This document shows positions 60,618 to 61,284 of a stretch of 64,000 bases of DNA, one piece after another. This DNA comes from an uncultured Candidatus Saccharibacteria bacterium (GTDB lineage Bacteria; Patescibacteriota; Saccharimonadia; Saccharimonadales; UBA4665), in assembly GCA_964483005.1 (NCBI GenBank), contig CAYZZH010000001.1:23370-87369 (forward strand), written 5' to 3'. The notes below the pieces were generated by a model. The model saw only the letters and a program-made list of their open reading frames with translations. It did not search any database and had not been told where the DNA came from. The position numbers and the translations under genes were made by a program. Positions within the stretch are counted from its first letter, which is position 1. Each line of letters begins with the position of its first letter.

Positions 60618-61269
60618 GTGAATGCTTTTGAGATGTGGGGTCTGACCCACAGGATGACAGGGACTTTTGCTAAAACTGCAATAAACTTCTTTATGGTCCG
60701 CCGATGACAGATCTTTTGCTAGAAAATGCGGGCTTTCGCGCCCGCTCGGCGACAAGGACCTTTTGCTGCCAAAAGGTCCTTGACCTAAAACCAGGCCAAA
60801 GGCTCCACCTCTCGGTCAGCAGTTGTCAGTTCGACAACCGACGCGAGAACTCCTCAGGGCAGGTATTGCCACCGGCAATACCTGCCCTCGTCAAACAACT
60901 CGCGCCGCCTCTCGGAAGTTGTCGAGCCTAACAACAGCTGAGCCGGGAGCTTACGCATGGCCCACACTAGCTGTTCCTTCTTCGCTGAAGCTACGAAGGA
61001 CAGGTCCTCTCGCGGCCTACGGCCGCGGTTTAGAGCATTGGGATTTAAGATATTTGGATTTGTTTAGTATTTAGACATTAGTGCTTAGGATTTGTTTACG
61101 TATCTTTCCGTAGTTTCCGCTTCTCAGCAGTCTGTGATCAGATTGCTGAGAGGAGTGAAACGTAGGAGGGGTGTTTAGAAATTCGGATTTCGGATTTGTA
61201 TAGAATTGGGTGTTTTTTAGAAAAATGTTTCTAAGGTGCTGCGAAAAGGTGCCTGGCTGGGTGACAAAC
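60618..61269. other. ~650-bp gene-free region densely packed with perfect hairpins and short direct repeats
   Basis: Hairpins:
- 60635-60650.
- 60728-60745.
- 60754-60781 (12 bp).
- 60822-60838.
- 60856-60888 (15 bp).
- 60971-61003.
- 61011-61027.
- 61122-61151.

Direct repeats:
- GACAGnnnCTTTTGCTAnAAA x3.
- CCTCTCGG..GTTGTC x2.
- GGATTTGTTTA x2.
- TTAG every 7 nt x4. Confidence 0.8.
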
Positions 61270-61278
61270 TGCTACAAT
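61270..61278 (+). promoter_or_regulatory. Extended -10 element 6 nt before ATG 61285 (leaderless-type)
   Basis: TGcTACAAT then acaact then ATG. Confidence 0.45.
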
Positions 61279-61284
61279 ACAACT

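Follow-up and report, generated by a model that had tools for sequence, protein, structure and literature searches.

Hairpins and the coding status of the spacer

A non-coding spacer of 667 bp, dense in hairpins, lies between a gene for an HhH-GPD/MutY-like glycosylase and a gene for a small membrane protein in an uncultured Candidatus Saccharibacteria bacterium, a member of the candidate phyla radiation (CPR). The 64,000-nt stretch that we analyzed (contig CAYZZH010000001.1, positions 23,370 to 87,369) is called the window here, and all coordinates refer to it unless a contig is named. Its proteins have their best genomic matches in metagenome-assembled genomes (MAGs) of Saccharibacteria. The spacer starts after the stop codon TGA of the glycosylase gene (60615-60617) and ends before the ATG at 61285, from which the -10 box TACAAT is separated by 6 nt. 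The arrangement is the same in relatives, and the short distance suggests that the mRNA of the small-protein gene is leaderless. A terminator-like hairpin with a T-run closes the glycosylase gene (Table 1), and transcription from this gene probably stops ahead of the spacer. A first-pass annotation had described the stretch as free of genes, and this was borne out over the full 667 bp. Scored against the codon usage of the same genome, the short open reading frames (ORFs) of the spacer had values of -0.12 to -0.02, the same range as off-frame ORFs, while seven of eight real-gene ORFs had values of +0.12 to +0.34 (the eighth, 41395-41706 on the minus strand, had -0.19). The spacer ORFs had no match in Pfam, PADLOC, or PHROGs. 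A coding function was ruled out from the codon scores and these empty searches.

Table 1 Coordinates of features in the spacer, its surroundings, and other structured spacers of the window
Feature	Position	Strand	Remarks
HhH-GPD/MutY-like glycosylase gene	59799-60617		Upstream neighbor of the spacer
Terminator-like hairpin and T-run (ATACGCTGGGATGGGAGCGTGT ATTTTTTGTG)	60585-60615	+	End of the glycosylase gene; consensus scan only
Non-coding spacer, found in this species only	60618-61284	no strand	Codon score, relatives, folding z about -6.6 to -7
Perfect hairpin TGTGGG-gtctga-CCCACA	60634-60651	no strand	Stem search
Family 1, three diverged tandem units of ~45-50 nt	60654-60795	+	U1 60654, U2 60704, U3 60749
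Perfect hairpin GCGGGC-tttcgc-GCCCGC	60728-60745		Then ATTTTCT on the minus strand, terminator-like
Hairpin 1	60753-60782	no strand	13-bp perfect stem, loop CTGC
Perfect hairpin GTTGTC-agttc-GACAAC	60822-60838	no strand
Hairpin 2	60856-60888		15-bp perfect stem, loop ACC; 60853-60890 with flanking bases, hypervariable segment
Hairpin 3, CGCGGCC-tac-GGCCGCG	61011-61027	no strand	7 bp
AT-rich part, three 32-nt units	61035-61202	+	61035-61066, 61067-61098, 61171-61202
Hairpin 4	61122-61151	no strand	13-pair stem (12 Watson-Crick, one G.T); loop polymorphic
Perfect hairpin TTAGAAA-aatg-TTTCTAA	61217-61234	no strand
Conserved promoter core ACAAACTGCTACAAT (15 nt) and ATG	61264-61287	+	-10 box TACAAT 61273-61278
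Small membrane-protein gene	61285-61641		Downstream neighbor of the spacer; 118 aa, Ala/Pro-rich, leaderless
TsaC/Sua5 gene	61645-62241		After the small-protein gene; NUDIX hydrolase gene next
Spacer	59531-59798		z -9.6
Spacer	35741-36049		z -7.8
Hairpin-rich spacer, same test	60618-61284		z -6.6
Spacer	461-662		z -5.8
Spacer	46951-47198		z -5.0
Spacer	43062-43420		z -4.7

Seven perfect hairpins (perfect stem of at least 6 bp, loop of 3-8 nt) occurred in the spacer, compared with 0.83 ± 0.91 expected and a maximum of 4 in 500 dinucleotide shuffles. At least eight hairpins had been annotated; the eighth, hairpin 4, is near-perfect because of its one G.T pair. The four that had been named individually are all where they had been placed, and the one given as 60754-60781 grows to the 13 bp of hairpin 1. 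The minimum free energy (MFE) z-score of the spacer was -6.95 on the plus strand, with a predicted folding energy of -268 kcal/mol, and -6.96 on the minus strand. Each arm of hairpin 2 is itself a nested palindrome, GGCA-N5-TGCC, which gives several registers for mispairing. The GACAAC arm of the hairpin at 60822-60838 has an alternative partner, GTTGTC at 60919, and a long-range inverted repeat (60831-60847 with 60909-60925) is 76% complementary. Around hairpin 4, a predicted 9-bp helix (61099-61107 with 61164-61172) includes four G.U pairs, on the plus strand only. The sequence AGGAGG (61164-61169), predicted to be paired inside this extended helix, precedes a 10-codon mini-ORF from GTG 61171 to TAG 61201-61203 (MFRNSDFGFV). 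In a consensus scan, only 60585-60606 (plus strand) and 60745-60728 (minus strand) fit a terminator with a GC-rich stem and U-tract; none of the four large hairpins is followed by a T-run. Perfect hairpins without a T-run are found at many gene ends of the same genome, and a U-tract-independent terminator role for the large hairpins is possible.

Composition divides the spacer into a hairpin-rich half with 56-58% GC and a half with 42-44% GC, and direct repeats are found in both. Of the three direct-repeat families annotated at first, two held up. The family 1 units share GACA(A/G)GGAC(C)TTTTGCT...AAAAC and had a local alignment score of 28 against a shuffle maximum of 17, whereas family 2 (60808 and 60908) scored 20 against a shuffle maximum of 22 and was no better than chance. 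The third family is GGATTTGTTTA with GGATTT. Both annotated copies of GGATTTGTTTA are real, the second at 61088 as given and the first at 61056, one base from its annotated start; a third copy with one mismatch lies at 61192, and there are none elsewhere in the window. The GGATTT cluster (five copies in 61041-61197 against 20 on the same strand over the whole window) and the four TTAG motifs with a 7-nt period (61064, 61071, 61078, and 61085) were likewise confirmed as real and locally enriched. In the AT-rich part, the 32-nt units are 69-75% identical, two of the three are adjacent, and each has GGATTTGT(T/A)TA at its end.

Family 1 also records how hairpin 1 arose. Deleting 60768-60786 (GCCAAAAGGTCCTTGACCT, 19 nt) from U3 leaves GACAAGGACCTTTTGCTAAAAC, a near copy of the U1 sequence GACAGGGACTTTTGCTAAAAC, and the 19-nt insertion holds the exact reverse complement of the preceding 13 nt (60753-60765). 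A reverse-complement insertion inside a family 1 unit indicates that hairpin 1 was made by inverted duplication within an older direct repeat, and at the level of sequence its local origin is clear. Template switching during replication is also expected to leave new segments of this kind, reverse-complementary to the sequence that they adjoin.

Relatives, strain variation, and database searches

Nine syntenic loci in relatives (L082, L083, L085, L086, L087, L106, L107, L002, and L003; HhH-GPD identity ~54-68%) have the gene order CarboxypepD_reg-like protein, HhH-GPD, small protein, and TsaC, usually with NUDIX next. Their spacers between the HhH-GPD and small-protein genes are 17-142 bp long compared with 667 bp here: 17 bp in L002 (similar in L003), 20 bp in L082 (CP064992) and L106, 30 bp in L107, 49 bp in L083 and L085, 109 bp in L087, and 142 bp in L086. 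Only the promoter core ACAAACTGCTACAAT aligned with the L086 spacer and the remainder had no significant similarity, so that ~640 bp appear specific to this species; homology of the AT-rich half with the L086 spacer was rejected because just these 15 nt aligned. By these alignments the spacer is lineage-specific. Comparison with the orthologous region had been proposed as a way to separate conserved structure from repeat accretion, and the short spacers of the relatives decide this in favor of accretion.

The same spacer has received DNA in another lineage. The HhH-GPD protein of L084 is exactly the same as that of L083 and L085, yet L084 has a 777-bp insertion at this site (3206-3982 of its contig; compare 4820-4830 of L083). 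The insertion is AT-rich, contains two hairpins and a 167-aa ORF on the minus strand (3401-3904) without a Pfam, PADLOC, or PHROGs match, and adjoins the 20-bp palindrome AAGTATTACGTGAAATACTT. The string GTCAGACAC...CACCGGC, which we saw by eye to be shared with our spacer, was not significant after shuffling, and homology with the L084 insertion was rejected. In more distant relatives (L001, L004, L006, and L012), HhH-GPD and TsaC have one or more additional genes between them. This site behind the glycosylase gene may be an insertion hotspot.

We found 19 contigs of the same species (L081 and L088-L105) in independent metagenomes (JGI, ENA, and Logan) via exact matches to the flanking proteins. 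Over ~41 kb aligned, these had roughly a dozen substitutions relative to the window outside hairpin 2 (~0.03% divergence, ~99.97% identical). Besides substitutions, L081 (JGI 3300042203) lacks 95 bp of the HhH-GPD gene (window 59945-60039), which cuts the protein to 194 aa; either the allele is genuinely disrupted or the contig is misassembled.

Within hairpin 2 the strains differ sharply. The three contigs that cross 60853-60890 (L081, L100, and L105) each have 10-12 differences from the window in those 38 bp. The window allele has the 5' arm AGGGCAGGTATTGCC, loop acc, and 3' arm GGCAATACCTGCCCT, with 15 perfect pairs; the L100 allele has AGGCAGTACTTGCC, acc, and GGCAAGTACTGCCT, with 14 perfect pairs; and the allele of L081, found again in L105 from a separate data source (JGI and ENA, respectively), has AGACACTACTTGCC, acc, and GGCAAGTACTGCCT, with two mismatches. 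Thus L100 shares its 3' arm with L081/L105 and differs from them in only two bases of the 5' arm, and its 5' arm matches the shared 3' arm exactly in reverse complement, which is what re-copying of one arm off the other would produce (arm homogenization). In this pair the clustered differences are explained by copying of the opposite arm. The window and L100 alleles are both perfect stems with mirrored changes in the two arms. A fourth allele is possible in L102, a contig that ends within the hairpin. Strains differ in the hairpin 4 loop as well (TGAT in the window, TAAT in L095, TAAC in L105), and covariation between strains was seen in hairpin 2 only.

Two assemblies from other samples, L100 (57373-61093) and L105 (60775-61700), together reproduce the spacer sequence apart from the local alleles, so it is not an assembly artifact. 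None of the 19 contigs spans the whole spacer and 14 end inside it, with left-hand contigs ending at 60777, 60802, 60848, ~60870, 60925, and 61093 and right-hand contigs starting at 60775, 61067, 61133, 61140, 61243, and 61266. Likely causes of these breaks are perfect palindromes 30 nt or longer, which would fold back k=31 de Bruijn graphs, together with allelic bubbles. Position 35802, within another long foldback of the window (35768-35943), is likewise the end of two Logan contigs.

At gathering thresholds, a scan of the whole window with Rfam 15 gave nothing in the spacer, the sole match being a cobalamin riboswitch at 43213-43349. At E ≤ 10, 60300-61600 had only sub-threshold chance matches (mir-205 with 24 bits against a threshold of 55, and others), and ARAGORN reported neither tRNA nor tmRNA. 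The families covered included tmRNA, RNase P, SRP, 6S, OLE, GOLLD, ROOL, HEARO, group I/II introns, and riboswitches. The earlier failure to match tmRNA, RNase P RNA, SRP RNA, or 6S RNA therefore stands, and the scan placed no known RNA family behind the spacer. Searches with four hairpin arms and GGATTTGTTTA, and blastn of the spacer, returned no second copy on either strand of the window, where the units are thus not multi-copy repetitive extragenic palindromes (REPs). Against 80 related loci, blastn and nhmmer gave chance matches only; tblastx against all loci and blastn in distant mode against phage and plasmid collections gave none. Exact-pattern scans of viral contigs with three spacer motifs had 0 matches, as did scans for the central and right parts in a metagenome collection that apparently does not hold these contigs.

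Other classes of element were also sought. We found no terminal inverted repeats, target-site duplications, or further copies as in miniature inverted-repeat transposable elements (MITEs), and the only inverted pair spanning the ends (60517-60533 with 61292-61308, 82%) falls within the two flanking genes. There was no pair of attC cores (R'' RYYYAAC and R' GTTRRRY, 40-150 nt apart) on either strand, which excluded an integron attC array or CALIN. The spacer has no DnaA box, no initiator, partition, or regulator gene beside it, and no GC-skew switch, the skew being positive throughout 44-64 kb. An origin or terminus was ruled out from the skew and the absent DnaA boxes, and an iteron array or origin was rejected from the same absences, the missing initiator, and the imperfect likeness of the 32-nt units; iterons would be evenly spaced, almost identical repeats of ~17-22 bp. 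Hairpin 1 is readable as an 11-6-11 dif/Xer site, a candidate dropped for lack of a skew switch and of likeness, by eye, to the dif consensus. Also by eye, a sigma-54 promoter reading of GGCA-N5-TGCC was rejected since its GG-to-GC spacing is 8, where sigma-54 promoters have 10, and IS200/IS605-type ends were rejected since the first and last hairpins are unrelated. Diversification by a diversity-generating retroelement was rejected since the target is non-coding, the window has no template repeat, and the changes are not adenine-specific.

Proposed template switching and the rival explanations

We read the spacer, with moderate confidence, as species-specific DNA built by local direct and inverted duplication through template switching during replication. 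On this best reading it is neither a conserved RNA gene nor a set of mobile-element copies, and we infer that it lacks a specific function. The ancestral spacer would have been ~20-50 bp long with just the promoter of the leaderless gene, and would have grown to 667 bp in this lineage. Direct duplication would have given the three ~50-nt and three 32-nt units. Template switching would have copied short segments as their adjoining reverse complement, an inverted duplication, and would have overwritten one arm of an imperfect palindrome with a copy of its partner, making perfect stems in a single step and keeping them perfect. By the same process nested palindromes such as hairpin 2 would become mutational hotspots, which would account for the near-confinement of the differences between near-identical strains to this hairpin and for their mirrored form in both arms.

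We infer this mechanism from sequence patterns. It would explain why the stems are perfect, why the two strands fold equally well, how hairpin 1 arose, how L081 and L100 came to differ, and why strain differences are concentrated in a nested palindrome. Each step has precedent. Template switching creates perfect hairpins in one event along with multi-base compensatory changes (PMC8794818), makes imperfect inverted repeats perfect in bacteria (PMC5941160), and homogenizes arms and inverts spacers (PMC8604942), and quasipalindromes are mutational hotspots in E. coli through template switching (PMC7202029). The hairpins may additionally have a generic role as transcription stops or insulators that separate the glycosylase gene from the leaderless operon.

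Several points weigh against an origin by template switching without function. CPR genomes are compact and a functionless 667 bp should vanish fast. The spacer is present in samples of many projects and selection could be keeping it, although strains with ~0.03% divergence are too similar for this presence to carry much weight. Selection for pairing would yield the same mirrored pattern in hairpin 2, and the change from the window allele to that of L100 needs more than one template-switch event. Only hairpin 2 and the loop of hairpin 4 proved hypervariable, and the covered part of the foldback at 35768-35943 is identical in two other samples. The four G.U pairs of the predicted helix around hairpin 4 hint at pairing at the RNA level, a hint weakened by the preference of MFE prediction for G.U pairs. 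Lastly, the unrelated insertion in L084 shows that foreign DNA can land in this spacer.

That last point bears on a serious partial alternative, in which the spacer is the scar of a horizontally acquired cassette that lost its ORF, left terminators and an AT-rich promoter region behind, and was then remodeled locally. This history, which overlaps the one we prefer and departs from it only in the origin of the initial few hundred bases, is unlikely in our estimate. It would fit an ORF-bearing, hairpin-bearing insertion at precisely the same spacer in L084, the extra genes there in four more distant relatives, and the two-part composition. Yet neither translated nor nucleotide searches related the spacer to the L084 insert, relative loci, or phage or plasmid records, no ORF remnant has a coding signal, terminal repeats, target duplications, and attC-like sites are absent, and the internal repeats show that the region arose in place at least in part. 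We regard a lineage-specific structured non-coding RNA (ncRNA), or several small RNAs with hairpin 2 as a fast-evolving functional stem-loop, as distinctly unlikely. Such an RNA would be expected to show the very stable predicted structure, the alleles that stay paired through two-sided changes, and the plus-strand G.U pairs of hairpin 4 and of the helix flanking it. The upkeep of a large spacer in a compact genome, a sigma-70-like match just upstream (60582-60611), and the terminator-like site on the minus strand would also fit. The promoter match is weak, however, and overlaps the terminator T-run; the minus strand folds equally well, other spacers of the genome give the same statistic, and bulges, tetraloops, and junction motifs, which functional RNAs typically have, are missing from the perfect stems. 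Two stem mismatches occur in the L081/L105 allele, which is present in two samples. With no Rfam family even at the relaxed threshold, absence from all nine syntenic relatives, and conservation or covariation limited to one hairpin, the large structured ncRNA proposed in the first-pass annotation was not supported. Quite improbable is a variant in which a species-specific multi-hairpin RNA of ~400-600 nt, or a DNA element read as hairpins, carries a stem-loop (GGCA-N5-TGCC, acc, GGCA-N5-TGCC) diversified on purpose or by selection, for example in interaction with a host bacterium or phage; this would explain three or four pairing alleles in near-identical strains.

The other two early proposals, an iteron-like protein-binding array and a graveyard of REP/MITE units, stood in part. 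It is very improbable that proteins bind the GGATTTGTTTA/32-nt repeats and the half-sites and palindrome of GACAAGGACCTTTTG as operators or iteron-like elements, whether to control the leaderless operon (small protein, TsaC, NUDIX) or as part of an origin or partition site. The motifs are indeed enriched (five GGATTT in ~160 bp, GGATTTGTTTA only here), and hairpin 1 would fit an 11-6-11 palindrome preceded by two directly oriented half-sites. The relatives, however, keep the operon and promoter core with spacers that contain none of the motifs, which makes a required role in controlling the leaderless gene unlikely; the divergence of the 32-nt copies and the missing adjoining genes, DnaA boxes, and skew switch tell against the array as well. 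Scarcely credible, finally, is a stack of dispersed palindromes like MITEs or like REPs and bacterial interspersed mosaic elements (BIMEs), inserted one by one. Such a stack would suit the extragenic site, the several palindromic units in alternating context, the assembly breaks, and the few short repeated elements elsewhere in the genome. But no main hairpin arm or spacer segment recurs in the window, the hairpins are mutually dissimilar, terminal inverted repeats and target-site duplications are missing, and the breaks are largely explained by long palindromes and allelic bubbles. What survives of the three proposals taken together is the accretion of repeats and palindromes, with units that arose locally and are not of the REP or MITE kind; we found no evidence of a conserved ncRNA or of required iterons.

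Known systems and the rest of the window

As a known kind of feature, the spacer is palindrome-rich intergenic DNA shaped by template switching, with an unusually clear hypervariable hairpin. It resembles the Ripley-type template-switch hotspots of E. coli quasipalindromes in that the inverted copy of hairpin 1 adjoins its template, the stems are perfect, multi-nucleotide differences among near-identical genomes cluster in a palindrome, and one allele equals another after arm copying. It differs from these hotspots in that the mechanism here is proposed from patterns in the DNA, and in being denser than is usual in descriptions of them, with eight hairpins per 667 bp and 180-nt foldbacks in neighboring spacers. 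No template-switch analysis in a CPR bacterium was found in the literature searched.

REP/BIME of Proteobacteria are similar as extragenic palindrome clusters that form DNA or RNA hairpins with possible terminator or insulator effects. REPs form a conserved sequence family of tens to hundreds of copies, mobilized by REP-associated tyrosine transposases (RAYTs), whereas every hairpin in the spacer is different in sequence and none recurs in 64 kb. The large RNAs OLE, GOLLD, ROOL, HEARO, and raiA, and the housekeeping RNAs, are of similar size (~400-650 nt) with very negative z; unlike them, the spacer has no covariance-model match, is unconserved in relatives, and consists of perfect palindromes with equal strands. 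Plasmid and phage iterons share the direct repeats in an AT-rich segment (GGATTTGTTTA three times within a 32-nt unit), but the copies here are chromosomal and irregular, and they come without initiator gene, skew switch, or DnaA boxes.

If template switching is the correct explanation, the spacer would be a clean natural example of how this process and local duplication inflate a spacer in a small CPR genome, with perfect hairpins built from nothing and strain differences at the hotspot ~a thousand times those elsewhere. Such spacers mimic structured RNAs in z-score screens and break short-read assemblies, as in the contigs described above. A synteny check in relatives should filter them before RNA genes are called. 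If the spacer instead encodes a fast-evolving functional hairpin RNA, this ncRNA would be both new and specific to the lineage of an episymbiotic bacterium.

Similar structure was found in other spacers of the same genome. Six of the 17 spacers tested in the window had z below -4.5 (Table 1), and 13 coding controls ranged from -0.4 to +2.8. Single long foldbacks occupy 59526-59712 and 35768-35943 (~180 nt each) and 510-600 (~90 nt); these have up to 27 consecutive pairs and z of -5.0 to -9.9, and their sequences are mutually unrelated. The spacer ahead of the glycosylase gene (59531-59798) is also enlarged, with 268 bp compared with 23-91 bp in relatives, and perfect hairpins of 9-20 bp stand at many gene ends. 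Together, the other structured and enlarged spacers and the gene-end hairpins suggest that this lineage tends to gather locally made inverted repeats.

The small membrane protein downstream of the spacer had a weak PADLOC match to PD-T4-6 (E 7.7e-4), which is probably a low-complexity artifact. Three repeats elsewhere in the window do recur. A perfect palindrome of 38-44 nt (AACATTCTCACTTTTCTAACGGCCGTTAGAAAAGTGAGAATGTT) is present at 43088-43131, 48278-48315, and 48840-48878; the first copy lies ~80 nt upstream of the cobalamin riboswitch and the others flank a minus-strand gene (48315-48833), and the palindrome resembles a common operator or a bidirectional terminator. A 58-nt module (...CGAATnTTAnTTTCTGAGTGGTATAG) with 83% identity between its copies (47056-47113 and 59735-59791) immediately precedes two genes, one with its start at 47199 and the other, the HhH-GPD gene, with its start at 59799, and is probably a shared promoter or operator. 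Two distant spacers share a 54-nt segment with 89% identity in opposite orientation (4422-4474 and 57494-57547).

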